Of a stretch of DNA of 64,000 nucleotides, positions 29,918-43,832 are shown one piece after another. Source of the stretch: Chloroflexota bacterium (lineage in GTDB: Bacteria; Chloroflexota; Anaerolineae; UBA2200); contig JACIWX010000002.1 of the NCBI GenBank assembly GCA_014360755.1, positions 269,988 to 333,987 of the forward strand, given 5' to 3'. The notes under the pieces were generated by a model, which did no database searches, had not been told where the DNA came from, and saw nothing but the letters and a program-made list of their open reading frames with translations. The position numbers and the translations under genes are program-made. The first letter of the stretch is position 1. Every line of letters begins with the position of its first letter.

Positions 29918-30834
29918 TCGTACAACCGTTCCAAACTGAGGTCCGGACAAACCGTATCGGGGCATTTGAGGGTGAGCGTAGCAGCAGAGACGCCCAGGCG
30001 CATCGCCTCATCGAGCGGGAATCCGTTGACCAAGCCGTAGACAATGGCAGCGGTCAGGGCATCGCCAGCGCCCGTGTAATCCACTACTTCACAGCGGATA
30101 GCAGGGATGTAACCGCTTTCACGGGCGCTGGCATAGCACAGCCCTTCCTCACCAAGAGTAATCACAGTAATCCCCACACCCTTTGCCACCAGCTCTTGGA
30201 CCGCTGCCATTGCTTCTTCGCGCCCATGGATAGGATGCCCACACAATAGCTCTGCTTCCGCCAAATTAGGCGTAATCATCGCTAGATCGGACAGATGTTT
30301 CCTCAAGCGCGGAGCCAGGGTAGTAGAGGTAGGGTCCACCGTGACGGGCACCCCATAGTGCTTGGCGGTGCGGATGGCTGAGGCAAGCGTTGGGGGCGAT
30401 AGGTTGGAGTCCAGCACCAGCATCGCGGCACCCTTGAAAAGGCCTCGTTGCGCGTAGATGTAGGCGGGTGTGATTAAGCGCATCGTCTCCATTTCATCCA
30501 CGGCAAAGGTCTTGCTGCCGGCTTCATCCAGGATGGCTAGGTACGCTGCAGAGTGACACTGGTCTGTGATGATCACTTTGCTGACGTCCACGCCGGCGCT
30601 AGCCGTGCGCTCCAGAATCTGCGCTCCAAAGGGGTCGTTGCCCACCACCGAAAGCAGGATTGTAGGCTGGCCCAGGCGCGCCAAATTCTCCGCCACATTG
30701 CGCCCCACGCCACCAAAACTGAGCGTGATATCGCCGGGCACCGACGTACCCAATTGCAGTGGCTTGTGTGCGCGGCCCTTGACATCCACACTTGCCGCGC
30801 CGATGACGAGGATGTGAGAAGAAGAAACGTTCAT
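29902..30834 (-). CDS. PfkB/ribokinase-family carbohydrate kinase.
   Basis: N-terminal [11 protein letters not shown]...FGGVGRNVA and C-terminal [17 protein letters not shown] anion-hole motif. Confidence 0.8.
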
Positions 30835-31381
30835 TGCATACTCGCTTTCGTGTTCTTTGCAGATGGGGAAACCACTCGCACTTTTGCTCCACCTTGTGTC
30901 AAAACTTTAGCAGATTATAACATGCATGGTGAAAAAGCTGTACTCCATGGGCAGCAAATCATAATTGACCGCTACATAATTCGATTTATAATATATTTTG
31001 AATCAACAGAACTACCTTTGCATTCTTAGGATCCTTATATGTTGGGTTATTAAGAGACCTTATATCACAATATCTGGGTGAGAAAGTACTCCAACTTGAG
31101 CGTAACAGTAAAACTGCAAAGATAGCAAATAGAATACTGCCTATTGAAAGTTGTCGCCATCATTTTTGTTGTAGTGCGCTGAATGGAATCAGCTCAGAGT
31201 AGGGAGAGCTTTATATAAACATTATACCTGTCAGTAGCTAGAAATAGAACAAGATCGGTTTGCAGATCCCAGCGTTCGTCAGCCTCGCTCTCGAGAAAGA
31301 GAGCCTTAGTCAAAACGCGTTAGAAGCTTAATGAAAATAAGATAGCGAAACAAAGAACTGCAAATTATTACTGCCTAGCAG

Positions 31382-32608
31382 ATGGAGGAAATGATGAGCA
31401 ACATTTTGATAATAGCTGCCATAACTGCTTTAATGTTTGTCGTAGGTATCCTCCTAGGGATTTTTTTTGGATACCCGTTCTTGGGGGCAATAACGGGCCT
31501 ACTAGCAGGCTTATCATTAAGTGCTTATTGGATAACGAGACGCCGCCGCTGGCTTGCTACTATAATTCTGCTCACGCTATTTGCACTAGCCTATGTCACA
31601 GGTGGTTGGTTGGGAACTATGTACGCTGCTGCAGTTAGTGGGCTTACGCTTTTCACTTCTGCTGCAATCCTGCGCGAATTCTATGGAGGCAATGAATTCG
31701 AAGCCTTTTTTCATCATCTACGCCTTCTGGTAGGTTTCATTCGGGGAATTCAGGTAATAGCGGATGGATCAATTGTTGCGCCTAGCGCCTCTCGATCAGA
31801 GCTAGGTCCATTCCTTATAGTCGTGGGTCCTGAGAATGCCATAATTATGCAACGTGGTCCGCAGCAAACGCGTATCTCAGGACCCGCAGTATTCACAAGC
31901 GCGCCGTTCGAATACGTGAAACGGGTATATGATTTACGTCCCCGGCAAAAAACTTTTACCTTTCAAGATGTCTTGACAAGCGATCTAATGGCCACAACAG
32001 TGACGGTTTCTGTTACTTATGGCATCAAGATACCTCCACGGATTAGACACGGTCAGGCATCATGGACAGATGCAGAGACACGTGTAATTGAGCGGATAGA
32101 TTCCTGGATGACAGACTGGGAGACACGCACAGCAGAAACGATCGAAGGGAGTGTAAGGCAAGCTGTAGGAAGGCTGGACCTGGCAACATTGCTGACACCT
32201 GGATACTTTGCTGATCTGGCTAGACAGATCCAAATCTTGGCAATTCGTACCCTGCGTCCTTGGGGTGTGAACATCCACCAAGTAATCGTTAGCAGCGTAC
32301 AGCCCGCGAATGGGGTCAAGACAGCTACAACGAATCGTTGGATCGCCAGTGCTGAGCTACAAACGACCATTACTATTGAACGCGCAAGGGCTTTAGCCTG
32401 GAAGGAGGCATTGTTGCTTCTGGCGGACGGCTATGCAATAGCCAAACAAAAGGGAATGTCAGAAGAGTCCATTCATAGGGAAGTGTTGCGTCGTACACTT
32501 GAGCAAATTGCGAAAGACCCTGCTACAAAGATAATCTTCACCCCCGAACTAAATAGCGCGCTTGCTGGACTATTTCGTTCCATAGGATTAATTTCAGACG
32601 CAAGCTAA
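31382..32608 (+). CDS. Membrane protein with an SPFH (band-7/flotillin-like) domain. First gene of the low-GC island.
   Basis: Three to four N-terminal TM helices, then an SPFH-like core (IVVGPENAIIMQRGPQ...FTFQDVLTSDLMATTVTVSVTYGI). AT-rich codon usage. Confidence 0.55.
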   Translation: MEEMMSNILIIAAITALMFVVGILLGIFFGYPFLGAITGLLAGLSLSAYWITRRRRWLATIILLTLFALAYVTGGWLGTMYAAAVSGLTLFTSAAILREFYGGNEFEAFFHHLRLLVGFIRGIQVIADGSIVAPSASRSELGPFLIVVGPENAIIMQRGPQQTRISGPAVFTSAPFEYVKRVYDLRPRQKTFTFQDVLTSDLMATTVTVSVTYGIKIPPRIRHGQASWTDAETRVIERIDSWMTDWETRTAETIEGSVRQAVGRLDLATLLTPGYFADLARQIQILAIRTLRPWGVNIHQVIVSSVQPANGVKTATTNRWIASAELQTTITIERARALAWKEALLLLADGYAIAKQKGMSEESIHREVLRRTLEQIAKDPATKIIFTPELNSALAGLFRSIGLISDAS

Positions 32609-32650
32609 GGGAAAGATATGGGGTTCGAATGATGCTATTTGCGCTAAAGA

Positions 32651-32896
32651 TTAACGCGTTGTCTCAATATCTATTGCATGTGATTCCAAAGCAGATTGGG
32701 CCGGCTGCGAATCCAAGACAACACCAAATGCTGTGGCCACGGCTTGCATGGCAGCACTAAAACCCGCTCGATATATGGCCACTTGTGTAATTGGTAAGTT
32801 TATCGCCAAAGAAGCGTTCGCTTTGTCAATGGCTTGAAGAATCTGCTGAATATCTTGTTTCAAGAATACTTCTGACTGAATTCGAAATAGGCTCAT
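32651..32896 (-). CDS. Small hypothetical protein (81 aa), divergent from the 33179 operon.
   Basis: ORF only. No motif. Confidence 0.3.
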   Translation of the reverse strand: MSLFRIQSEVFLKQDIQQILQAIDKANASLAINLPITQVAIYRAGFSAAMQAVATAFGVVLDSQPAQSALESHAIDIETTR

Positions 32897-33029
32897 GCTT
32901 ATTCACCTTTTGCAGAACTCATTTTGATGAGGAGTAATCTCCCTGTCCGTTAAGATATTGGAACATTTGTTCTAATACTAGCACAGAATTTGCTTAATGT
33001 CAAATGTGCTATCCATTGTATCCCAGTTT

Positions 33030-33062
33030 TTGACAGTTTTTCAGTTTTGTATAAACTATATA
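33030..33062 (+). promoter_or_regulatory. Sigma-70-like promoter (TTGACA ... TATAAA) ahead of the island operon.
   Basis: Read directly from the sequence. Confidence 0.35.
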
Positions 33063-33178
33063 TCGTTACTGAAGGAGAGTACAATACCTTGAGTAGCGGG
33101 CCTTGAAGGATTGAAACTCGTTCGCGGGATCGGTCTCTTGTTATCAAGATTATTTGCTAGTCTGTTATAGGCCGAAAT

Positions 33179-33568
33179 ATGGGCGGAATTTACGAAATCT
33201 TTCGTGAGGCATTGCCTGAAATCATTGCTGGGCTAGTCGTTGCAGCTATCCTTGCCCTTGTTGGTGTGGCGGTGCGTAAGCGTGCTAATAAGGTTGCCTC
33301 ATCCCATCAAAATGTACCCCCTTCTAGTCCACTCCCCTGTACAAAGCCCCAATCGAAGAAGAAAGAGAACGCAGAGTTGCTTGACCTAAAGCACCGTCGG
33401 CTGCATGAGCTCCAAAAGAAAAAAGCCCTTATGGGCATCAATACTCCACCCGAAGTGATGATCGAGATTGAGGAACTGGAGAAAGACATCCACGAGCTTG
33501 AAAGGATAGACCGCAATGGTTATGGGCGAAACGGGGAGCGAAGCACAAGAGCTCAAGGAGCTCATTGA
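33179..33568 (+). CDS. Small membrane-anchored protein carrying a copy of the shared ~50-aa helical module.
   Basis: N-terminal TM helix. C-terminal ELLDLKHRRLHELQKKKALMGINTPPEVMIEIEELEKDIHELE is homologous to the N-termini of the next two proteins. Overlaps the next gene by ~50 nt in another frame. Confidence 0.45.
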   Translation: MGGIYEIFREALPEIIAGLVVAAILALVGVAVRKRANKVASSHQNVPPSSPLPCTKPQSKKKENAELLDLKHRRLHELQKKKALMGINTPPEVMIEIEELEKDIHELERIDRNGYGRNGERSTRAQGAH

Positions 33569-35063
33569 GGCCTATCGCCGGCGGCTTCACAAGCTGCGTG
33601 TGCGTGTGGCTCTGATGGGCATAGATGCGCGGCCCGAGGATTTGATTGAGATCGAGGACATTGAAAAAAAACTCGCCGAGCTAGAAGAACAACTGAACCA
33701 TTTCGCAGCCATTCCGGTAGCGGGATGGAAAGTACCGGCAAAGGAGTTAGAGGGTCTCAGATACAAGCTAGACCGGCGCATTGGGGTCCTGGAGGCTTCC
33801 CTTCAGTATCTTACTGTTAGTTTACGCTTCTCGCCACGAGGAAAAGATAAGTATGAGGTCCTCTTGCAATCGGAAGTGGGCGATGTGGCCGATGAATTTG
33901 TCTTGCCCTTTACGGCTGATGAGGTTTTTCGTTTCAAATCCGAGGTGGAGAGGGCTATCCTGGCTCGTGGTAGCGGTTTCCGAGGGCAACTGCCTTCGGC
34001 TATGGAACGCCTCAAGGAGTTCGGCCTCAAGTTGTATAAAGGACTCCCCGAAGCTGTACGAGAGCGTTATCAGGCAGCTCGGGATAAGGCCGTTGCCGAG
34101 GGATATACTGGTGTGCGCTTGCGTTTGAATTTGACTGACTCACGTCTGGCAGCTGTCCCATGGGAGTTCCTATACGACCTCAAACGAGGAGAATTCCTCG
34201 GTCTCTCCGGGCAGACCCTTCTAGTGCGCTATGCCGAACTTCCTTACCCTCCTACACTGGGCCTTCACCCTCCTTTGAAGGTTCTGGTAGTAGCTCCTAA
34301 CCCAAGGGATTTGCCCCCTTTAGATGCGGAACAGGAGCACCAACGTGTTGAAGGGGCCTTGAAGGACCTGGAGGAAGCCGGACTGATTACTATCTATTGG
34401 TTAGGCTTGCCAAAACGACCTATCTCGCTGCAGACCCTGCATGATGCTTTATTCGCCTTTCGACCCCACCTGCTTCACTTTATTGGCCACGGCACGTTCG
34501 ATGAACAGCGCGGTGAGGGGGCTCTCTTTTTCGAGGACGAGAAGACTTTGCGAAAGGAACCGGTGAGCAGTTGGCGACTGGCCCAGTTGGCCACCAGTTC
34601 TGAGAGTTTGCGCCTGGTCTTTTTGAACGCTTGCAAAGGAGCCAAGACCTCGGAGGTTGAGAAACTGAGTAGCTTGGCTGCATCTTTGGCGCAGAAAGGC
34701 ATCCCGGCGGTTATTGGGATGCAGTTTACGGTCACTGACGAGGCAGCCATCGAGTTCTCCAGCAAATTCTACCAGCGGCTGGCCGAGGGGGCACCAGTCG
34801 ATGCCGCTGTGCAGGAGGGGCGTATCCATCTAGGAGTGGTGAGGGACAATCCTATGGAGTGGGCGGTACCGGTGCTTTACCTTCTGCCTAGCGACGGGAA
34901 ACTTTTTCAGATCTCAATGCTAGGAAAGGACAATGATGACAAAGAGCGTCTAGCCCGATTAATGATGGACATTGCAAGGGCTGCATGCGGCGCGGGCGTT
35001 CAGCTAGATTCTATGTTTTTTACAAAAATTATAGAGATTTTAGGCAGATGTCCTGAAAAATAA
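33516..35063 (+). CDS. CHAT-domain (caspase-like) protease with the N-terminal shared helical module.
   Basis: N-terminal ELKELIEAYRRRLHKLRVRVALMGIDARPEDLIEIEDIEKKLAELE. C-terminal caspase-like His/Cys dyad LLHFIGHGTF and LVFLNACKGA. CHAT-like block KVLVVAPNP. Confidence 0.7.
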   Translation: MVMGETGSEAQELKELIEAYRRRLHKLRVRVALMGIDARPEDLIEIEDIEKKLAELEEQLNHFAAIPVAGWKVPAKELEGLRYKLDRRIGVLEASLQYLTVSLRFSPRGKDKYEVLLQSEVGDVADEFVLPFTADEVFRFKSEVERAILARGSGFRGQLPSAMERLKEFGLKLYKGLPEAVRERYQAARDKAVAEGYTGVRLRLNLTDSRLAAVPWEFLYDLKRGEFLGLSGQTLLVRYAELPYPPTLGLHPPLKVLVVAPNPRDLPPLDAEQEHQRVEGALKDLEEAGLITIYWLGLPKRPISLQTLHDALFAFRPHLLHFIGHGTFDEQRGEGALFFEDEKTLRKEPVSSWRLAQLATSSESLRLVFLNACKGAKTSEVEKLSSLAASLAQKGIPAVIGMQFTVTDEAAIEFSSKFYQRLAEGAPVDAAVQEGRIHLGVVRDNPMEWAVPVLYLLPSDGKLFQISMLGKDNDDKERLARLMMDIARAACGAGVQLDSMFFTKIIEILGRCPEK

Positions 35064-35219
35064 CCCGTGTGCAACAGTGTACAGGTACTAGATCTAAATC
35101 TCATATTATACAAGGACTAAGGGCACATCAACTATAGAAGATAAAACCTCCTAACTGGACTCCTATAATTATCCTAACTTTTGCTCTTTGACCCTTGTCA
35201 AGGAAAGAGAGGACTGTAT

Positions 35220-36902
35220 ATGAGCGCAAATCAAAAGCCAGGGGAAGCAGAGCTAAAGAATTTGCAAGAGCTCATCGAAGCCCATAGGAAACGGCTACAC
35301 AAACTTCGTGTGCGCGTAGCTTTGCAAGGCATAGATGCCAAGCCTGAGGACTTAATTGAGGTCGAAAATATAGAGCGCCAACTCTCCGAGCTTGAGCGGA
35401 AAAAACAGATCCTCTATGAAACGATAAGCGGCCTGAGTAAAGATGAAATAAGCAAGGATACCACCGAGATAAAAGATTCATTAGCCACCCTTGAAGGGAA
35501 AATAGAGAACCTTGACAAGAGAACCTCCGAGCGAGGGGTGGGTTTCACCAATAGGCAATATGAATTGGATCAAATTCTTAGTCCTTTCAGCAAGCCGTTT
35601 ATTATCATTGATGCTCCCGCCAGCTATGGGAAGACCTACTTGCTTAGAGCTGTGGAGCGCAAGCTGCAGTCTGAGAGAAGAGAAGTGTGGATTTGCCGTT
35701 CAGTTGATTGCTATAGGTTTAACGATAAAACAGGGATTATGACGGAAATCACTGGCAGTACTGTGAATGACGTGAACAATCTCCTCCCATTGGTTGATAG
35801 GGCTATGGAAACTGCCAGGGCCAATGGCTTAATGTTACTCTTTGATTCCATTGAGCATCTTGACGATAAAGTTTCTCACTGGCTGAAGAAAAACCTAATA
35901 CCAGCGCTAAATAATTCCTCATCAAACAGGGGTCGCAAGTTTAGAGCTCTCTTCGCTGGCCGGTACGTTGGAACCTGGGAAGATGGTTTAGGTTTACCTC
36001 ATCTCACCTTAAGCCTCACACCCTTTAGCAAAAAGGTTGTACAAGCATTTGTTCAGGAAGTAGGAAAGCAATTACATTTTCACTGGTCTGATAGAGATCT
36101 CGACGTCTTTGTTGAAGAACTGCTTGATATAACGGGTGGGTATCCCAAGGCCATTGTGGACATAGTGGAACATCTGGGGGATGAGCAAAAATTCGACATG
36201 ATCCTAGATAGAGAGAGCCCTGACTACTATTTCCAGCTCAGTAGGAAGAAAGATTTCTATAACAGATTTGTCCGCGGAGAGATCCCAAAGATCCTACAGG
36301 AGGTCGATCTCGCCCTGCAAAGGGCATTTGAGGTCGTCAGCGTGTTCCGTGCTTTCAACGCGGATACTCTGAACGCTCTTATTATGAAAAGGCACATACG
36401 GGAGTGGAGCAATGGCTGGGAGCTCTTTGAGGCTATGCAAAAAAACCGCTTGATAGAGGAAAAAGCAAGGCATCCTCTTGCCTGCGACAAAATCCTCCAG
36501 CGTGTTCTGGCAGCCAAAATGAGATTTGAGGATCCTTCTCGCTATGAGGGGCTTCAGCATTTCGCTGTCGCCCTATACGATCGCTGGATTCAGGGATTGA
36601 AGTACCCAGACGGTGAGTTGCCCAATCCACCTACCGGGTCTGATCAAATAACTTTTATAATAGAAGCACTCTACCACTATCTTCATACAACTCAGGACGA
36701 AAGAGATATTTTGGGAAAGCTGGACAGTTACCTCAACTGGCTAAGATCCCCTTTTGACCCCCGTAGCGCGGCGCGAGCCTTGAAACGAGGCGTCGAGGAG
36801 GACGAACAGCTGCCGGGGATGCTTAAAAGAGCTATTGGAGATAACGGGTATGACAACTTTCTCAAACATATAGATCGCTTCGGGGAGGAGGGAAAGCGAT
36901 GA
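35220..36902 (+). CDS. STAND-type P-loop NTPase with the N-terminal shared helical module.
   Basis: N-terminal ELKNLQELIEAHRKRLHKLRVRVALQGIDAKPEDLIEVENIERQLSELE. Walker A DAPASYGKTYLL. Walker B LMLLFDS. GYPKAIV (GxP) motif. Confidence 0.65.
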   Translation: MSANQKPGEAELKNLQELIEAHRKRLHKLRVRVALQGIDAKPEDLIEVENIERQLSELERKKQILYETISGLSKDEISKDTTEIKDSLATLEGKIENLDKRTSERGVGFTNRQYELDQILSPFSKPFIIIDAPASYGKTYLLRAVERKLQSERREVWICRSVDCYRFNDKTGIMTEITGSTVNDVNNLLPLVDRAMETARANGLMLLFDSIEHLDDKVSHWLKKNLIPALNNSSSNRGRKFRALFAGRYVGTWEDGLGLPHLTLSLTPFSKKVVQAFVQEVGKQLHFHWSDRDLDVFVEELLDITGGYPKAIVDIVEHLGDEQKFDMILDRESPDYYFQLSRKKDFYNRFVRGEIPKILQEVDLALQRAFEVVSVFRAFNADTLNALIMKRHIREWSNGWELFEAMQKNRLIEEKARHPLACDKILQRVLAAKMRFEDPSRYEGLQHFAVALYDRWIQGLKYPDGELPNPPTGSDQITFIIEALYHYLHTTQDERDILGKLDSYLNWLRSPFDPRSAARALKRGVEEDEQLPGMLKRAIGDNGYDNFLKHIDRFGEEGKR

Positions 36903-39715
36903 ACGGCATCCATCCGTGGTTTGTTGACCGAGAGGAGGAACTGGAGCGTATCCGAGCGCATGTTGAGGCTTGGGATACCACTCGTATTCTGGTCATTGAT
37001 GGACCAGGCGGCGTTGGCAAAACCAGGCTTCTTGAAGAAGTCCATAGACAACGCCTAGCACATATAGAATTTCTGAGAGGTCAATCGATCACCACCGAGG
37101 TTATTAATCTTGCTGACGTTCGCTTCCAAATGCCCATGAACCTAGCGCGTCGGATTGCCCTGGAGCTTGATCCCCAGCGTTTCCAACACTACTTAGAAGA
37201 GACCGATCGCATCGTGCGCGAGGAGAGCAAGGGTCTTCTAACGTTGGAAGCCTTGGAGCGATATATACACGAAAGCGATAAACTCTTCCTCCAGGCTTAT
37301 AACGACATGGCCCGAGAGAAACGCGTTTTGCTCCTCATTGACACCGTGGAGGCTATCTTGTCCCTCCCCGTTGGGCGATATCTGGCAAAGATAGTGTCTC
37401 AACTGAAGAACACCTGTGTGCTGATAGCCGGCCGGGAAGGGATGAGGGCAAAAGAACTGATCGAACAAGCACTGAAGCGAACACAACAGCAGGCGAGCGT
37501 CATCCTTGATTACCTCCTTTTGAAAAACTTCAAACCTGAAACCTCGGCTGAATATCTGGATAAAACCCCTGTGAAAGGCTATTTGGAAGCGCATCCTCGC
37601 CTTCGCCAGAACCTTTTGTTTCTAACGGAAGGAAAACCATTGCTGCTGGCCCTTGCTGTGGAATGGCTCCTGCGCGATATGCCGTTGCCGGAGTTATTGA
37701 AACAAACCCCAAAGAAACTACAAGCCTTAGGAGACAAAGAGAAGAAAGACCTGAGGGAGCGTTTCGAGGCGGCTCTAATAACTCATATCCGCTATCTCAG
37801 AGATCCCGGCGGTGACTTGATCCTTGACATGGCCCATCTCTATTACCGCTTCGACCCCGAGGTACTGTCAGCCATTACAGGGTGGCCTGAGGAAAAGAGC
37901 CAAGAGCAACTTAGCAGGATGAGGAGAGACCTTTTCTTTGTCAAGGCTAAGCCAGGAGACATCCTGGTCTTGCACGATGAAGTGGCCAGATTGGTACGGG
38001 AATATGTCTGGCCGCAACTGGATCCTTTTGGCACCAGGCGGCAGGAACTCAGTCGGATGGCGGTTGAGCATTACCGGAATAGGCTGGAACGGCTGGAAAA
38101 GAGAATGCAAGAAGCACAGGAAGAGGCGTTGAAAGCAGAGGAGAAAGGAAACCTTGCTAAAGCCAGCGAGGCCTGGAGATGTTGGGCAGAAAAGCGGCGC
38201 GAGCAATGGGTGCTGGTCCAAGAACTCCTTCACTATACTTTGGAGGTGGATCTAAAGGCTGGATATAATCTCTTTGTAGAGAAATTCGATCAGGCTACAG
38301 ATAAATATCAGCTTCTTCTCCGTTCGCCTTTAGTAGAAGAGATTGCGAATTATGAGGAAAAGTTTGCAGGAGACGAGAAGTACGAGGTTGGTATTCGAAT
38401 TGCCAAGTGCCTCCTGGACGAGACAGAATATCAGGATGCCTATGAGAAAGCAAAAGCCCTATTAGAAGCCTTTCCCTATCAGGATCATCGTCGTGTGGAT
38501 ACCATCATCCAGTTAGCCAATAATGCTGCCCGCATGGGTCGTCTAGAGGAAGGGCGTCAATACTTTGAGGAAGCGTTAAGACTTTGTAAAGAATACCAAC
38601 TTCCGGACAAGAAATGGTGGGCTATGGCTGAAAATGGGCTGGGGTGGGCTTATCGCGTCCTTGGTCAGTGGGACGAAGCCATTCAGCATTGGCAAACAGC
38701 ATTGGATTATAGCGTTGAAGTTGGCGATCGCAAGCGGATGGCTAGCATTTTGAACAACCTTGGATACGTGTATCATCTTAAAGGGGGTAGCCGAAGCGGT
38801 CTGGCGCTCAGCCAGCAAGCATTGGAAATTGCCCAATCTCTAGGCTTTGGACGACAAATCGCCATGAATCACAGTACTTTAGGAGAGATCCATTTAGCTT
38901 TGGACCGGTACGAGGAAGCGTTTGCCCATTACAGAGAGGCACTGGCCCTCTTTGAAGGGGAAAGAGACGAGGAGTGGATGGCCATCGTATATCATGAACT
39001 CTCCCGCGCCAAACGCCACCAGGCTTTTGATGAAGAGGAAACACCAATCCGACAACAAAAAGAGCGGCTTGAAGAAGCCCTTCGATACGCTGAGCGAAGC
39101 TTACAGCTCTGTACAGATTACCATCTCTCGAAAGAGCTCCCAGCTGCATATTATGGAATAGGAAGCATAGAGGCAGATTTAGGTCAGATTGAGAAAGCGA
39201 AGAGCTATTTACAGGAAAGCTACAATCTAAATAAAGAACGAGGGGAACTTTTTGGTCTCATGGTCGATCTCGCTGCTTTGGCAGAGCTGGCCTATATGGA
39301 GCAAGACATGGAAAAAGTCAGAGAACTAGCACAAGAAGCCCGGCAATTGCAATCTACAGGGGGTGGAAAAGTTCCGGCTAATTATCCCCTGTTCTTTGGC
39401 AGAACGCTGCGTACCCTTGCTGAAGCCTATTTAGAGCAGAAAAATTACGAGCAAGCCTTGGATACCTACATTGAGGCTTTAACCCACATCGGGCGCCATG
39501 GTGGCTATGGGAAATATCGCTTCGACCGTGAGCTAAAGAAACTACGCAAAAGAATGAGCGAAGTTCCGTCAGAAATTAGGGCAAGTTGGTGCGAGCGCTT
39601 TATTAAACAATGGCAAGCTAAACCAGACCTAGCTAGGGAGCATCCTGAGGTAATCACAACTTGCTTGTTGGTCAAGTGGAGTGCCTGTCATAATATAGGC
39701 GCAGAAAGGGAATAG
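36899..39715 (+). CDS. STAND (NB-ARC-like) NTPase with C-terminal TPR repeats.
   Basis: FVDREEELERI...ILVIDGPGGVGKTRLL Walker A. VLLLIDTVEA Walker B. EGKPLLLAL motif. More than 8 TPR-like repeats in the C-terminal half. 4-nt overlap with the upstream gene. Confidence 0.8.
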   Translation: MNGIHPWFVDREEELERIRAHVEAWDTTRILVIDGPGGVGKTRLLEEVHRQRLAHIEFLRGQSITTEVINLADVRFQMPMNLARRIALELDPQRFQHYLEETDRIVREESKGLLTLEALERYIHESDKLFLQAYNDMAREKRVLLLIDTVEAILSLPVGRYLAKIVSQLKNTCVLIAGREGMRAKELIEQALKRTQQQASVILDYLLLKNFKPETSAEYLDKTPVKGYLEAHPRLRQNLLFLTEGKPLLLALAVEWLLRDMPLPELLKQTPKKLQALGDKEKKDLRERFEAALITHIRYLRDPGGDLILDMAHLYYRFDPEVLSAITGWPEEKSQEQLSRMRRDLFFVKAKPGDILVLHDEVARLVREYVWPQLDPFGTRRQELSRMAVEHYRNRLERLEKRMQEAQEEALKAEEKGNLAKASEAWRCWAEKRREQWVLVQELLHYTLEVDLKAGYNLFVEKFDQATDKYQLLLRSPLVEEIANYEEKFAGDEKYEVGIRIAKCLLDETEYQDAYEKAKALLEAFPYQDHRRVDTIIQLANNAARMGRLEEGRQYFEEALRLCKEYQLPDKKWWAMAENGLGWAYRVLGQWDEAIQHWQTALDYSVEVGDRKRMASILNNLGYVYHLKGGSRSGLALSQQALEIAQSLGFGRQIAMNHSTLGEIHLALDRYEEAFAHYREALALFEGERDEEWMAIVYHELSRAKRHQAFDEEETPIRQQKERLEEALRYAERSLQLCTDYHLSKELPAAYYGIGSIEADLGQIEKAKSYLQESYNLNKERGELFGLMVDLAALAELAYMEQDMEKVRELAQEARQLQSTGGGKVPANYPLFFGRTLRTLAEAYLEQKNYEQALDTYIEALTHIGRHGGYGKYRFDRELKKLRKRMSEVPSEIRASWCERFIKQWQAKPDLAREHPEVITTCLLVKWSACHNIGAERE

Positions 39716-39720
39716 CCTTC

Positions 39721-40851
39721 ATGATCCAAACTAATATTTCATCTCCATTCAAGGGAACACTTTCACAACAATTATTTACGGAAATCGATAGGCAATGCGA
39801 TTGTGCATGTCTCGAACCAGATCTGTTCATTTCCTGTCTCCCTGCCCATCCGATTTTCTGCTACGTTGAAGTTACCCCTGTTTGTAATAATCTTTGCCTT
39901 GGGTGCGGAAACATTTTCAGGGCCGATAGAACCTCGCCACCGCTTTCATCCGCAGAATGGCAAACTGTTTTGACTAGCTTACAACCTTTTGTTCATTATC
40001 TCAAACTCACTGGGGGCGAACCGACGCTGCACCCAGAGTTCGAAACCATTATCCGAACAGTTCAGGAAAAAGACATCCCCTTCGCGCTTTTCACCAACGC
40101 CAGATGGAATGCCCCAGAACGACTCATCGCGCTTCTGCAAAGTACCACACAATGTAGAGGCTTGCTTGTTTCTTTGCATGGCGCAACGGCTGCTTCTCAT
40201 GATGCTTTTACGGGAGTTATGGGCTCTTTTAGTGACACTTGCAGCAATATCAAACGAGCCGCCTTCGCTGGCCTGGATGTCAGAACGAGCACTGTCATCA
40301 CCAAATATAACTGGCAAGAGATCGACACAATCGCCACTCTAAGTCAGAGCTTAGGGGCTCACTGTGCTGTATTCAACCGCTACATAGGGCCTCCTTTGCC
40401 CGAGCTAGAACCTAGCAAAGAACAATTGCAGCATGCAATTGGAGTAATCGAATATATGAGGCGGAACCTAACAAATAACCAACAATCAATGGTCGAATTC
40501 GGAAATCATATTCCTTATTGCCTCTATCCTTCCTCTTCTGCTGCTTGCCTTGCAGGGATCGCTTATTGCACTGTTGACCCCTGGGGCAATGTGCGGCCTT
40601 GTAATCATGCTCCACTGATCTGTGGCAATTTACTAGTGCAGTCACTGGAGGAGATATGGCGTTCGGAGACAATGGAAGCATGGCGAAAAATGATCCCTAT
40701 GGAGTGCGCTGGGTGCGCATTATACCAGACTTGCCATGGAGGGTGTCGAGCTGAGGTGATGCTACGTAACGCCTCTAATTATTACTCACTAACCAACAAA
40801 TCACACCGGTCTACGCTGCCTACCGAAGCAAGAGTACTTCAAATTGGATAA
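39721..40851 (+). CDS. Radical SAM/SPASM-domain protein with no N-terminal RRE, last gene of the island operon.
   Basis: CNNLCLGC CX3CX2C cluster. LTGGEPTL. C-terminal SPASM Cys cluster CTVDPWGNVRPC...CAGCALYQTCHGGC. 5-nt gap after the STAND-TPR gene. Confidence 0.8.
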   Translation: MIQTNISSPFKGTLSQQLFTEIDRQCDCACLEPDLFISCLPAHPIFCYVEVTPVCNNLCLGCGNIFRADRTSPPLSSAEWQTVLTSLQPFVHYLKLTGGEPTLHPEFETIIRTVQEKDIPFALFTNARWNAPERLIALLQSTTQCRGLLVSLHGATAASHDAFTGVMGSFSDTCSNIKRAAFAGLDVRTSTVITKYNWQEIDTIATLSQSLGAHCAVFNRYIGPPLPELEPSKEQLQHAIGVIEYMRRNLTNNQQSMVEFGNHIPYCLYPSSSAACLAGIAYCTVDPWGNVRPCNHAPLICGNLLVQSLEEIWRSETMEAWRKMIPMECAGCALYQTCHGGCRAEVMLRNASNYYSLTNKSHRSTLPTEARVLQIG

Positions 40852-41384
40852 GGTTTGTAGCCAAAATGTTTCTTCTTAGTTATAGGGAACATTTTCACCT
40901 TCATCTCAAGACAGCGACACTCCAAAAATTCTTCTATCCGTTACGTGCGGTTTGATAATCTGTGAAAAGCCTTCAGCAAGTCATTGCATGTTGACAAACA
41001 TAAGCACAGTAAATCACCGGGATAGAAAATGTGCTAAATTTTTTCATCCACAGCTCGATAATGACACGCATCCGGCTGCTTGTTGAGCAAAGCGGAAAAG
41101 GAACTACGCTAGACGTAACTTGAGCATCCCACCCACGCAAGCTGGCCCGGGCTATGTGCTATAGGTAAGCCACAACGGTGTGCAATATGTGCCACAGGGC
41201 TACTCTGCAATTGAGCAAAAATGTGTGCCTAAACCCCCTACGGATACAGTGGCCAAACTGAACAGATGCACTTATTGGCAAAACAATGTTGGCATGCACA
41301 GCGTAGCATGCCTGCCAAAGCCTCTTGAACCAGAGCAGGTGTAAAATTAGATAACATAATACCCCGGAGCCAAATTCCCTACAT

Positions 41385-41753
41385 TTACATCCCCGTGCCT
41401 GTCGCGGCGCTGATGGCTGCCCCCAGTAATGTCTGCCAGCCCATGCCATAGGTAAAGACCATGGCGAATTGCACCAATTCTTCTTTCTGGCCGTTGAGTT
41501 TGTTGGCGTCAATTGCTCCAGGAAGCAGGACAATGCCCACGATGGCGGCAAACAGGATGGAGAGCGCGTTTGGACGCCACACTTGACCCGCGCGATAACT
41601 TTCGAGGAAACTGCTGGCAATATTGCCCAACATGAGGGTAGCATACAAAGCCAGTTGCCGGCTCAGGGTCAATTTGGGCACTTCCACATCCTTTGCCATC
41701 CCCTCACCTTCCGCCGCCCCCAACTGCAAGGGATTGAATACCCAGGCCGTCAT
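41385..41753 (-). CDS. Small hypothetical membrane protein. The ORF was trimmed to the Met so that it excludes the upstream repeat tract.
   Basis: Hydrophobic segments ALSILFAAIVGIVLLPG and GMGWQTLLGAAISAATG. Confidence 0.4.
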   Translation of the reverse strand: MTAWVFNPLQLGAAEGEGMAKDVEVPKLTLSRQLALYATLMLGNIASSFLESYRAGQVWRPNALSILFAAIVGIVLLPGAIDANKLNGQKEELVQFAMVFTYGMGWQTLLGAAISAATGTGM

Positions 41754-41819
41754 GCTTGTCCCCCTTTCGGATAAGTGCTGTAACTTTGGCAAAGTATACT
41801 GGATAAAAGGTGAAATAAC

Positions 41820-41995
41820 AAATGGTAAGTGATGAGTGATGAGTGATAAGTGAGGAGTGAGAAATACTGCGTATTGCGTGTTCCGTTTTTTACTCAGCAC
41901 TCCTCACTCGTTACTCATCACTCATCACTCCTCACTCGTTACTCATCACTCATCACTCGTTACTCATCACTCATTACTCCTCACTTACAACCGCT
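41820..41995. repeat. Heptanucleotide tandem-repeat palindrome. About 5 GAGTGAT/GAGTGAG units on one arm and about 13 TCACTCA/TTACTCA/TCACTCC units on the other.
   Basis: Read directly from the sequence. The arms are reverse complements around a ~33-nt loop. It lies between the uvrC 3' end and the start of the next gene. Confidence 0.8.
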
Positions 41996-43832
41996 CTTTG
42001 ATGCGTTCAGCCGCCTCCCTGGTTATGCCTTTTACGGCAGCCAATTCCTCTACAGAAGCCTCGCGGATCGCTTCCAGCGAGCCAAAATGCTTCAGCAATG
42101 CCTGACGACGTTTGGGACCCACGCCTGGTATCTGGTCCAGGGTGGAAGCCAGTCCGCTCCGTTCGCGCAGCCGGCGGTGGTAGCCGATGGCAAAGCGGTG
42201 CGCCTCGTCACGCACCCGCTGCAGCAGATACAAGGCTTCGGAATCGCGTGGCAGCAGGAGGGGGTCGGACCGTCCAGGGACAAACACTTCCTCGCGCTGC
42301 TTAGCCAGCCCGATGGCTGGGATGTTTCCCACCCCCATCTCACCCATGACCCCCAATGCGGCGCGCAACTGCCCCTTGCCCCCATCCACGATCACCAGGT
42401 CTGGCATTACGCCCCAGCCACCTTCTTCCTCAGAGACCTGCTTTTGTTCCACAGCCTGGCTTTTGGCCCTTTTGAACCGCCTTCGCAGCACTTCTTGCAG
42501 CATGGCATAGTCATCCGCCCCGCTCACTGTTTTGATGCGGAAACGGCGGTACTCGCTTTTGCGTGGCACGCCCTTGACAAAAACTACCATGCTGCCTGTA
42601 GCGGATGTACCTTGGATATTGGAGATGTCGTAGCATTCGATGCGCGTTGGGGCTTGTGCCAAATGCAGGTATTTCTGCAACTCATCCAACGCCGTAACCT
42701 GCCGTGCCTGATCCGCTGCCCATTGTGCACGCAGATGCGCGAGGGTCTCGGCAGCATTTTCGGCTGCCATCTGCACCAACGCGCGCCCTTTGCCGCGGCG
42801 CGGCACACGGATCGCCACCCTTGTCCCACGCTTCTGACGCAGCCACTCTTCAATGACCTGTGCTTCTTCTATATCGTGCTGCAGCAGGATGGTCGGAGGG
42901 ATGTACGCCGCTTCATCATAGAACTGCTTGACAAAGGAAGTCATGACCTCCAGGTCATCTTCATCCTGCGTGCCGGTGAGGATAAAATACTCCCGTCCGA
43001 TCAGCTTGCCCCCGCGGATGAAAAAGGTCTGCACGCAAGCCTGGCCATCCTCACGCGCGAAAGCAATGACGTCCTCGTCGCTGCGGGTTGCCGACACGAT
43101 CTTCTGTCGCTCGACCACCCTTTGCAACGCCTGCACTTGATCGCGCAAAACCGCCGCGCGTTCAAAATCCAATGCCTCTGCGGCTTTCTGCATCTCCTGC
43201 TCTAAATCGTGGATGATGCGCTCTTGCTTGCCTTCCAAGAAGAGGACAATCTGTTCAATCAACGCACGGTAATCCTCGCGCGAGATGGCGCCAATGCACG
43301 GCCCGGCGCAGCGGCCAATGTGGTAGTACAAGCAGGCTCGCTGATCCTTGCCCGTTATCTCGCGTTTGCAGGTCAGATAGGGGAAGAGCTTACGCAGCAA
43401 CTCCATAGTCTGCTGCACTGCTTTGGCTGAGGTGTAAGGCCCAAAATAGCGCGCACCGTCGTCCTGCATGTGGCGCACGGTGTAAATACGAGGGAATGGC
43501 TCCTGCAGACTGATTTTGATGTACGGATAGCGCTTGTCGTCCTTGAGCCGCACATTGTAGCGCGGGCGGTATTTCTTGATGAGATTGCATTCGAGGATAA
43601 GCGCTTCCAGTTCCGAACCGGTAACGATAAAGTCAAAATCGGCGATGTGATCCACCAGCCGGCGTATCTTGGGAGTTTGGCCATTGTAGGCATGAAAATA
43701 GGAACGCACGCGGTTGCGCAGATTGACTGCCTTGCCCACGTAAATGACCTGGCCCGCAGCATCTTTCATCAAGTATACGCCCGGCTTGGTCGGCAACGAA
43801 TTGAGACGCTCTTGCAGAAGTGCTTGCTCCAT
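41985..43832 (-). CDS. uvrC: Excinuclease ABC subunit C (UvrC).
   Basis: N-terminal GIY-YIG (GVYLMKDAAGQVIYVGKAVNLRNRVRSYF). UvrBC-interaction and RNase H-like/HhH C-terminus. 615 aa. Confidence 0.95.
   Translation of the reverse strand: MEQALLQERLNSLPTKPGVYLMKDAAGQVIYVGKAVNLRNRVRSYFHAYNGQTPKIRRLVDHIADFDFIVTGSELEALILECNLIKKYRPRYNVRLKDDKRYPYIKISLQEPFPRIYTVRHMQDDGARYFGPYTSAKAVQQTMELLRKLFPYLTCKREITGKDQRACLYYHIGRCAGPCIGAISREDYRALIEQIVLFLEGKQERIIHDLEQEMQKAAEALDFERAAVLRDQVQALQRVVERQKIVSATRSDEDVIAFAREDGQACVQTFFIRGGKLIGREYFILTGTQDEDDLEVMTSFVKQFYDEAAYIPPTILLQHDIEEAQVIEEWLRQKRGTRVAIRVPRRGKGRALVQMAAENAAETLAHLRAQWAADQARQVTALDELQKYLHLAQAPTRIECYDISNIQGTSATGSMVVFVKGVPRKSEYRRFRIKTVSGADDYAMLQEVLRRRFKRAKSQAVEQKQVSEEEGGWGVMPDLVIVDGGKGQLRAALGVMGEMGVGNIPAIGLAKQREEVFVPGRSDPLLLPRDSEALYLLQRVRDEAHRFAIGYHRRLRERSGLASTLDQIPGVGPKRRQALLKHFGSLEAIREASVEELAAVKGITREAAERIKERL

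Follow-up and report, generated by a model that had tools for sequence, protein, structure and literature searches.

A co-conserved pair of STAND NTPases and a radical SAM/SPASM enzyme as the putative core of a bacterial conflict system

To our knowledge, the STAND defences that have been examined in bacteria to date are in essence receptors made of a single chain. A locus that encodes two different STAND NTPases back to back raises the question of how such a pair could divide its work. The two genes, here called NTP1 and NTP2, lie at positions 35220 to 39715 of a 64,000-nucleotide stretch of DNA (the window) from a Chloroflexota bacterium of the Anaerolineae (assembly GCA_014360755.1, contig JACIWX010000002.1, positions 269,988 to 333,987, forward strand), in a cassette that also encodes a CHAT caspase-like protease and a radical SAM/SPASM enzyme (Table 1). 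On balance, we consider it probable that the two genes encode STAND (NLR-like) NTPases which are active and paralogous, and that these form an obligate pair and, together with the radical SAM/SPASM enzyme, the core of a conflict system, i.e. one directed against invaders or acting in programmed cell death.

Both proteins show the signature of the STAND superfamily, i.e. an hhGRxxE-type helix, Walker A and B, a sensor-1 arginine, a GxP motif and a winged helix, in the case of NTP2 with a C-terminal repeat sensor. The motifs of NTP1 read FTNRQYEL (residue 109), APASYGKT (Walker A, residue 132), MLLFDSIE (Walker B, residue 205), AGR (residue 246) and GGYP (GxP, residue 306), and those of NTP2 read FVDREEEL (residue 8), GPGGVGKT (Walker A, residue 35), LLLIDTVE (Walker B of the form hhhhDxxE, residue 144), AGR (residue 177) and GKP (residue 245). 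The Walker A, Walker B and GxP motifs that a sequence-only reading of the locus had assigned to both proteins could thus all be located, as could the hhhhDxxE motif of NTP2, whereas the F-x-x-R-E-E-L motif given for the latter does not occur in that exact form, the actual spacing being F-x-x-R-E-E-x-L. A TTG codon at 35181 lengthens the NTP1 reading frame, yet its homologues begin at the ATG at 35220, which is preceded by GGAAAGAGAGGA.

A comparison of an NTP1 profile with 1.84 billion representative proteins gave 1245 matches with E ≤ 1e-3, of which 340 (counted as clusters at 50 % identity) had E ≤ 1e-30; the best 150 of the 1245 were used to survey conservation and N-termini. Among these 150, residues F109, N111, R112, E115, G135, G137, K138, D209, G247, R248, G307, H308 and P309 are conserved in at least 90 %, a set that covers FxNRxxE, the G-GK of Walker A, the Walker B aspartate, the sensor-1 GR and GHP. 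For NTP2, 15 diverse relatives, which were picked via their NTP1 neighbour and not via their own motifs, share F8, R11, G37, G38, G40, K41, D148, T149, R179 and P247 without exception, and the only P-loop variants have the first glycine replaced by alanine. Chance does not explain the motifs of the pair: homologues that were found without recourse to them keep them either without exception or in at least 90 % of cases.

This conservation also bears on whether one partner is an inactive pseudo-NTPase scaffold, a possibility for which there is a precedent: in the nSTAND2 two-gene operon, the NTP-binding motifs are eroded in the STAND that bears the effectors, these are of the GT4 or HEPN type, and a hetero-multimer has been predicted (Kaur et al. 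2021, PMC8195603, section 15). The first Walker A residue of NTP1 is indeed atypical (APxxYGKT), and this protein has sub-threshold Pfam matches only. However, the Walker A lysine, the Walker B aspartate, the sensor-1 arginine and GxP are kept in at least 90 % of the 150 NTP1 relatives and are invariant in the 15 NTP2 relatives, and the loss of Walker motifs in orthologues, which the sequence-only reading had named as a sign of a pseudo-NTPase, was not seen. A pseudo-NTPase is thus extremely improbable. Likewise, the window proteins have no match to Pfam nSTAND2 and NTP1 does not have the eroded motifs of the effector-bearing nSTAND2 partner. The locus resembles nSTAND2 in its two adjacent STAND genes, one of them with variable effectors, and differs from it in that both partners keep their motifs, NTP2 has TPRs and the radical SAM enzyme is a constant partner, neither TPRs nor radical SAM enzymes being described for nSTAND2.

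Regarding the clade of the two NTPases, which had been left to be classified, Pfam gives a partial answer. NTP2 passes the cutoffs of ATPase_2 (35.2-36.0 bits, cutoff 33.2), AAA_16 (33.4-35.4 bits, cutoff 32.6) and AAA_22, and neither protein reaches NB-ARC (PF00931, cutoff 23.5 bits), with 15.2-16.9 bits for NTP2 and no match for NTP1; a distant NTP2 relative (locus L022) passes this cutoff at 28.9 bits, and 8 of the 150 NTP1 relatives match NB-ARC at E ≤ 0.001. NTP1 remains below threshold for all Pfam STAND families. The nearest of these is nSTAND5 (PF25199, cutoff 34 bits), which is matched at E ≤ 0.001 by 29 of the 150 relatives and not by NTP1 of the window, five relatives scanned singly scoring 17.5-20.6 bits. 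No significant relative of either protein was found by sequence among the solved structures in the PDB. In structure, the NTP1 model resembles plant NLRs and CED-4, and the top Foldseek match of NTP2 is 6mfv, an archaeal STAND-TPR protein (E 2.4e-10, 810 columns, the best full-length match). These results would place the pair near the AP-ATPase/NB-ARC clade, and an assignment to this clade is not supported.

If the two genes form a functional unit, they should travel together. A search with the NTP1 sequence returned eight proteins with 100 % to 26 % identity, seven of them non-identical, and a pattern search with the Walker A motif in one genome per species added 25 loci at 21-28 % identity, nearly all from Chloroflexota (Anaerolineae), plus one from a Beggiatoa-like bacterium, one from a member of the Saprospiraceae and two marginal proteobacterial matches. 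Each of the seven non-identical homologues is directly followed by an NTP2-type gene, and the 4-nt overlap recurs in nearly all of them. Counted from the NTP1 side, i.e. in loci found through the NTP1 sequence or the Walker A pattern, an NTP2-type STAND-TPR gene adjoins the NTP1-type gene in 29 of the 29 loci with enough flanking DNA (the 7 homologues and 22 loci at 21-28 % identity); left out of this count were L012, L020 and L027 (contig ends), L017 (other wiring) and L034 and L035 (marginal matches). The survey of co-occurrence proposed by the sequence-only reading therefore came out in favour of the pair, and the ATGA overlap on which its idea of translational coupling was based is present as well: in the window it is preceded by GGGGAGGAGGGAAAG, with the Shine-Dalgarno-like GGAGGAGGG just upstream in a GGAGG-rich stretch, and an overlap of the same length occurs in L001-L007, L009, L010, L018, L023 and L032. 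Since the order of the two genes is reversed in L013, L023 and L032, it is probably selection that keeps them adjacent and not the mere passing on of a single arrangement.

The two NTPase modules are also homologous to each other (hhalign probability 98 %, E 1.6e-13, 283 columns, 20 % identity), which makes them distant paralogues. Their divergence is correlated across loci: the Mantel correlation between NTP1 and NTP2 is 0.75 over 25 pairs and 0.62 when the close clade is reduced to one representative, neither value being reached in 5000 permutations. When split by module (21 loci), it is highest between the two NTPase modules (NOD1-NOD2, 0.81), followed by NTPase module and TPR within NTP2 (0.74), TPR and radical SAM enzyme (0.52) and NOD1 and radical SAM enzyme (0.31); shared ancestry inflates all of these values, and their ranking is the informative part. 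Such a ranking is what an interface between the two NTPase modules would give. Taken together, NTP1 and NTP2 appear to be a functionally linked, obligate pair.

Two independent single-protein STAND systems lying side by side in an island would be another explanation, given that single-protein STAND defence systems such as Avs and bNACHT are common and that each of the two proteins has complete NTPase motifs. This explanation is already contradicted by the adjacency in 29 of 29 loci, which extends down to about 21 % identity and includes the reversed orders, and by the conserved 4-nt overlap; in addition, the two architectures are complementary, one protein being without a sensor and the other without an effector, and the correlation between their NTPase modules is the highest of all. 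We therefore regard it as very unlikely.

A different wiring of the same module was observed in L017 (L017:7571-13703), where an NTP1-type module stands behind an nSTAND1-like STAND module in a single protein of 948 residues, with a CoxE-type vWA gene before and a CHAT gene after it, and with neither NTP2 nor a radical SAM gene.

The pair does not stand alone. Where enough DNA is available downstream, a radical SAM gene follows the pair in 26 of 27 loci, or in 23 of 24 when near-duplicate contigs are merged; the one locus without it is L019, where an alpha-2-macroglobulin gene takes its place. For the final count, Pfam and class-specific hidden Markov models (HMMs) were used, as phmmer with the radical SAM protein of the window missed divergent members: in ten phmmer-negative loci, the gene after NTP2 matched Pfam Radical_SAM in all ten, and the class-specific HMMs added L011, L031 and L024. 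The enzymes belong to two non-orthologous SPASM classes, i.e. a PqqE/MftC/AhbD-like class in the window clade, L009, L022 and L032, and a PapB/QhpD/DynA/anSME-like class elsewhere (loci cited for this observation are the window, 39721-40851, and L013, L014, L021, L026, L029 and L033). That two classes were recruited to the same position suggests that the activity is integral to the system. The window enzyme remains under every NCBIfam equivalog cutoff, the best match being AhbD with 106 bits against a cutoff of 500, and no radical SAM partner of either class reaches a named cutoff. The pair singled out by the sequence-only reading is real, whereas the conserved unit is apparently larger than the pair, namely a triad of NTP1, NTP2 and a radical SAM/SPASM enzyme.

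The presence of such an enzyme brings up the question of whether the locus is a cluster for a peptide made on the ribosome and modified after translation (RiPP), in which a peptide would be matured by the radical SAM/SPASM enzyme, with the STAND-TPR proteins serving that pathway as MalT/AfsR-like regulators or chaperones and not as immune switches. The radical SAM partners do resemble the peptide maturases PqqE, MftC, PapB, DynA and QhpD, NTP2 has weak NCBIfam matches to TPR proteins of the FxSxx-COOH and HaaT RiPP systems, and modules for peptide processing, of the FxSxx-COOH and related types, that are coupled to AP-ATPase-TPR proteins have been described (Kaur et al. 2020, PMC7159879, section 24). 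Our loci share with the latter the coupling of a radical SAM/SPASM enzyme to STAND-TPR proteins and TIR-type effectors, as well as a MinD/ParA-like domain on the STAND partner in L024 and in the NTP1 relative P0057. They differ from them in that neither a zincin metallopeptidase nor an FxSxx-type precursor gene was seen, in the second STAND, which lies outside that description, and in the scores, i.e. 58-69 bits for the radical SAM enzymes against an FxsB cutoff of 370 and 57 for NTP2 against an FxSxx_TPR cutoff of 300. Moreover, NTP1 and NTP2 have no DNA-binding domain according to Pfam, and no conserved precursor, transporter or leader peptidase was found near the triad; the operon ends with the radical SAM gene in several related loci, no same-strand gene following in L013, L016, L026, L028 and L033. 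The N-terminal slot of NTP1 is, in addition, filled by conflict-type effectors (TIR, SIR2, Mrr, caspase, CHAT and trypsin). A RiPP-type cluster is therefore unlikely.

It was further observed that the NTP2 relatives all end in a helix with a conserved tryptophan (hxxxhxxxW-x-[N/D/A/K], often W-x-N; 39400-39600 in the window). An aromatic residue followed by x-Asn or x-Lys is the motif crosslinked by some cyclophane-forming radical SAM/SPASM enzymes. As the same tail occurs in relatives paired with the other radical SAM class, it was ruled out as a class-specific substrate, and the tryptophan could equally be structural.

A division of labour is indicated by the domains that the two partners carry in other loci. 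Among the best 150 NTP1 relatives, the N-terminus carries EAD7 (15), TIR_2 (15), Trypsin_2 (13), CHAT (9), SIR2_2 (6), EAD8 (6), bDLD1 (3), HD-CE (3) or Mrr (2), as well as caspase and SEFIR domains, and the published adaptors EAD11 and EAD1 are found in NTP1 relatives, too. In the individual loci, this slot is filled by TIR (L011, L026), CHAT (L013), bDLD1 (L009, L014, L015), EAD7 (L018), EAD11 (L033), a DUF4062-like domain (L021, a weak Pfam match only) or a MinD-like domain (L024), and the long members of the family are direct CHAT-NTP1 or ParA-TIR-NTP1 fusions. Of these 150 relatives, one of the first 75 has TPRs, and the families listed for the remaining 75 include none; NTP1 of the window ends in a short helical domain of about 130 residues after the winged helix, without a repeat sensor. 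NTP2 relatives, on the other hand, always start directly at the NTPase, always end in TPRs and never carry an effector.

The repeat domain is the sensor in characterized STAND proteins. In NTP2 of the window, Pfam finds TPR_12 in six stretches, together with TPR_1, TPR_2, TPR_8 and TPR_10, and the AlphaFold model, a weaker one (pLDDT 71, pTM 0.47), contains 20 helices between residues 495 and 906, i.e. about ten hairpins, in line with the at least eight repeats counted earlier from the sequence. The array is structurally similar to the peptide-binding TPRs of LGN/Pins and Rap proteins. In four NTP2 relatives of about 1210-1230 residues, moreover, the NTPase is interrupted directly after the Walker A helix by a Peripla_BP_4 domain that is complete (E 1e-30 to 1e-37), at a position where NTP2 of the window has a helical insert. 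A small-molecule sensor nested in the nucleotide-binding domain of a STAND protein is an unusual arrangement.

Effectors thus appear to attach to NTP1 and sensor-type modules to NTP2, and this split between an effector slot on one side and TPR or Peripla_BP_4 on the other is what a sensor/transducer pair predicts. The relay proposed by the sequence-only reading is supported in this respect, i.e. by the domain split, the strict co-conservation and the two active-type motif sets, whereas its direction is a deduction from architecture.

In the window, NTP1 has no enzymatic effector of its own and is linked to the CHAT protease by a module of about 50 residues that forms a helical hairpin. Residues 10-59 of NTP1 and 8-57 of the CHAT protein are 72 % identical (E 2e-22), and NTP2 has no copy (E 0.25), as the sequence-only reading had recognized; it did not mention a third copy, which is located on a small transmembrane protein (45 % identity to that of NTP1 over 44 residues by BLASTP, E 4e-11; adaptor HMM, E 2e-25). 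The adaptor HMM matches exactly these three open reading frames (ORFs) in the 64-kb window, and none of the three copies matches any Pfam family, including EAD1-11 and bDLD1-3, even at E ≤ 10 (noise only), making this probably a new helical adaptor. The CHAT protein itself (Pfam CHAT, E 2e-30) shows the FIGHG and NACKG motifs in its translation and is the putative effector of the cassette. Since CHAT is fused directly to NTP1 relatives elsewhere (L013, P0021, P0033, P0086 and P0093), these 'Rosetta stone' fusions support the link between CHAT and NTP1 that the window makes through the shared adaptor. In distant loci, the genes found upstream of NTP1 code for a caspase, for a protein combining EAD1 with trypsin and for a protein with bDLD1.

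Such a layout is familiar from the EAD-coupled conflict systems, which combine a core NTPase with homotypic adaptors and with effectors of the TIR, caspase, trypsin or SIR2 kind and are found preferentially in filamentous bacteria (Kaur, Burroughs, Iyer and Aravind; eLife 2020, PMC7159879; 2021, PMC8195603). As in those systems, a small non-enzymatic helical domain is present both on the core NTPase and on an effector encoded by an adjacent gene, effectors occupy the same slot in relatives, the effectors are the same (TIR, caspase/CHAT, trypsin, SIR2), NTP1 relatives carry EAD7, EAD8, EAD11, EAD1 and bDLD1, and the hosts are mostly filamentous (Anaerolineae, Beggiatoa-like bacteria, Saprospiraceae). 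The core, however, consists here of two active-type STANDs and a radical SAM/SPASM enzyme instead of MoxR-vWA, a GTPase or an inactive STAND, and the adaptor of the window matches no Pfam EAD or bDLD. Another point against the likeness is that neighbouring adaptor copies are not each other's closest relatives, orthologous copies from elsewhere being equally close or closer.

Orthologues of the small transmembrane protein occur in L001, L003 and L008. A transmembrane helix plus adaptor is fused to NTP1 in P0006 (L007:515-2521) and, with two to three adaptor copies, to CHAT in L006:1013-3001. This layout recalls the published EACC1 small transmembrane partner of caspases, to which Pfam gave no match at the thresholds used. 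In L011:9548-11635, the adaptor HMM has a weak match (E 6e-6), and phmmer aligns NTP1 from residue 13 onwards to residues from 150, i.e. past the TIR domain (10-129). The NTP1 family may have had the hairpin at its N-terminus ancestrally, with effectors receiving copies of it only later.

How could such a pair operate? NTP2 would be the sensing subunit, kept inactive by its TPR array, similar to peptide-binding TPRs, until a ligand binds, while NTP1 would be the executing 'helper' without a sensor of its own and with its N-terminus as the attachment slot for effectors. Upon activation, the NTPase modules of NTP2 and NTP1 would co-assemble and thereby cluster the NTP1 adaptors. Through homotypic contacts, these adaptors could bring in the CHAT protease together with the membrane-anchored adaptor protein and switch them on, much as NAIP/NLRC4 works with CARD-caspase-1 or as sensor and helper NLRs work in plants. 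The radical SAM/SPASM enzyme would most likely make or modify the peptide or protein ligand read by the TPRs, or else modify a component of the system. Both architecture and co-evolution support this relay interpretation; they do not prove it. One might go further and imagine a two-chain bacterial NLR whose trigger, instead of being bound directly, is made or edited by a dedicated radical SAM/SPASM enzyme, so that what licenses the NLR-type switch is an enzymatic change to a peptide or protein of the host or of the invader. In this picture, the TPR STAND would nucleate the paralogous, effector-docking STAND, and the output would be delivered by the caspase-like protease and the membrane adaptor protein via the new helical adaptor. 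We offer this more specific version tentatively, as a possibility that may well turn out to be wrong.

Several observations weigh against the conflict-system reading or the roles assigned in it, besides the inflation of the Mantel values mentioned above. Walker A conservation of NTP1 in L011-L035 is given by construction, the Walker A motif being the search pattern. PADLOC-DB v2.0.0 contained no matching system and gave generic matches only (SAVED_CHAT and BovA for CHAT, pVip for the radical SAM core, TPR and weak P-loop matches), no relatives of the pair were found in viral contigs, no defence genes neighbour the cassette within the window, its flanks being ClpB-like, sugar-kinase-like and UvrC genes, and no convincing or conserved small ORF for a precursor peptide was seen in 32608-33179 and 40851-41985. 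Among close cassettes, it is the NTPase core of NTP1 that has diverged most and not the TPR array of NTP2 (38 % against 68-79 %), which would not be expected of a passive transducer. Between the window and L005/L006, it is only 38 % identical, compared with 69 % for the adaptor, 74 % for NTP2, 75 % for CHAT and 66 % for the radical SAM enzyme (66-79 % for the rest of the cassette), and over L005/L006, L007 and L008 together, the core (35532-36509) shows 35-40 % identity against 47-79 % for CHAT, NTP2 and the radical SAM enzyme and 58-69 % for the adaptor, a pattern which, at the sequence level, indicates mosaic or rapidly diverging NTP1 alleles. Relative to L018, moreover, the radical SAM enzyme (71 %) and the TPR (53 %) are better kept than the two NTPase modules (36 % and 26 %). 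NTP1 may thus face diversifying pressure or allele exchange and could be the partner which encounters the invader or the invader's inhibitors. What the TPR is linked with may be the radical SAM enzyme and not a variable ligand from the invader.

These data would fit a system of reversed polarity, our main rival explanation, in which NTP1 meets the invader or is the target of the invader's inhibitors, and the TPR part of NTP2 serves regulation as a scaffold, to which the radical SAM enzyme or what it produces would bind and which would either license NTP1 or hold it back. The joint retention of TPR and radical SAM enzyme and their Mantel correlation are in agreement with it. However, NTP1 has no recognizable sensor domain, only the helical residues after the winged helix, whereas the classical sensor modules, i.e. 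the TPRs and the inserted periplasmic-binding domain, are found on NTP2, with 6mfv as its top match. We therefore consider the reversed polarity rather doubtful and retain NTP2 as the candidate sensor and NTP1 as the candidate helper.

With these roles, the pair is comparable to NAIP/NLRC4 and to paired plant NLRs, to which it is not orthologous and from which it differs in having TPRs instead of LRRs, an alpha-hairpin or three-helix coil instead of a death fold as adaptor, and a radical SAM enzyme in the unit; a hetero-oligomer is only predicted here. Among prokaryotic systems, Avs/AVAST, bNACHT and 6mfv likewise combine a STAND NTPase module with a repeat sensor, but have effector, NTPase and sensor on one chain, while in our loci these are split over two co-evolving chains; the similarity of NTP1 to PADLOC Avs2 is negligible (E 2.5e-4, 16.7 bits). 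A system made up of two STANDs and a radical SAM enzyme was not found described in the open-access literature, which is weak evidence, two papers from the Aravind laboratory holding partial precedents; nor do a recent STAND survey and a domain-centric screen mention such a system. The general grammar is therefore already published, and what seems to be different here are the two active-type STANDs, the split sensor and effector slots, the new adaptor and the lack of a metallopeptidase and an FxSxx peptide.

In the window, the cassette comprises six co-oriented genes between 31.4 and 40.9 kb (Table 1) and forms a low-GC island (0.48, range 0.47-0.50 within 30000-42000, compared with about 0.55), flanked by ClpB-like and sugar-kinase-like genes on one side and uvrC on the other. 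Neither an integrase nor a tRNA gene was found at its borders, the tRNA clusters lying at 13.9-14.2 kb and 63.5-63.9 kb, and a promoter and terminator scan of the cassette gave counts not above those of shuffled sequence. Two minus-strand ORFs in its gaps, i.e. one for a hydrophobic protein of 171 residues (41385-41900) and one of 81 residues (32651-32896), are candidate genes only. The SPFH gene lies upstream of the triad in the window and downstream of it in L001-L007 and L018. In the close clade and L018, the triad is followed by a gene for a TPR protein with an S24 (LexA-like) peptidase domain and one or two SPFH genes; the window has a single SPFH gene and no S24-TPR gene.

Table 1. Positions of the cassette genes and their parts in the window, and of selected features in related loci
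Feature	Position	Strand	Remarks
SPFH/Band_7 multi-pass membrane protein	31382..32608	+	Pfam Band_7 E 7e-15; cassette accessory component
Small transmembrane adaptor protein	33179..33568	+	129 residues; N-terminal transmembrane helix and adaptor copy
Adaptor copy of small protein	33362-33508		residues ~62-110
CHAT caspase-like protease	33516..35063	+	
Adaptor of CHAT protein	33537-33686		residues 8-57
CHAT domain	34098-34877		residues 195-454
NTP1, STAND NTPase	35220..36902	+	560 residues; ATG start to stop
NTP1 hairpin adaptor	35244-35420		residues 9-67
NTP1 linker helix			residues 74-105
NTP1 STAND module	35532-36509		residues ~105-430
NTP1 Walker A	35613-35636		
NTP1 Walker B	35832-35855		
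NTP1 GxP	36135-36146		
NTP1/NTP2 ATGA overlap	36899..36902	+	stop with start codon
NTP2, STAND NTPase with TPRs	36899..39715	+	938 residues
NTP2 STAND module	36899-38023		residues 1-~375; from residue 1
NTP2 Walker A	37001-37024		
NTP2 Walker B	37328-37351		
NTP2 GxP	37631-37639		
NTP2 helical hairpin	38033-38248		residues 379-450
NTP2 TPR array	38381-39616		residues 495-906; ~10 hairpins
Radical SAM/SPASM enzyme	39721..40851	+	Pfam Radical_SAM E 4e-15, SPASM E 6e-9, both over Pfam cutoffs
NTP2 relative with Peripla_BP_4	L014:11616-15269		
NTP2 relative with Peripla_BP_4	L016:11441-15103		
NTP2 relative with Peripla_BP_4	L028:11404-15024		
NTP2 relative with Peripla_BP_4	L030:11435-15127		
TPR/S24-SPFH region after triad	L003:10961-11950		example
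TPR/S24-SPFH region after triad	L005:10086-11069		example
TPR/S24-SPFH region after triad	L007:8232-9455		example
TPR/S24-SPFH region after triad	L018:10607-11704		example

In the innate immunity of plants and animals, paired sensor and helper NLRs have a central place. If our reading is true, the loci described here would represent a widespread family whose sensor and executor reside on two active, co-evolving STANDs (at E ≤ 1e-30, the NTP1 profile matches at least 340 clusters at 50 % identity), and would offer a simple prokaryotic model for the activation of one NLR by another. The cassette would also define a new helical adaptor, with fusions connecting CHAT proteases to STAND helpers. Finally, the constant presence of a radical SAM/SPASM enzyme, recruited twice from different classes, would point to an unexplored link between radical modification of peptides or proteins and NLR-type signalling.

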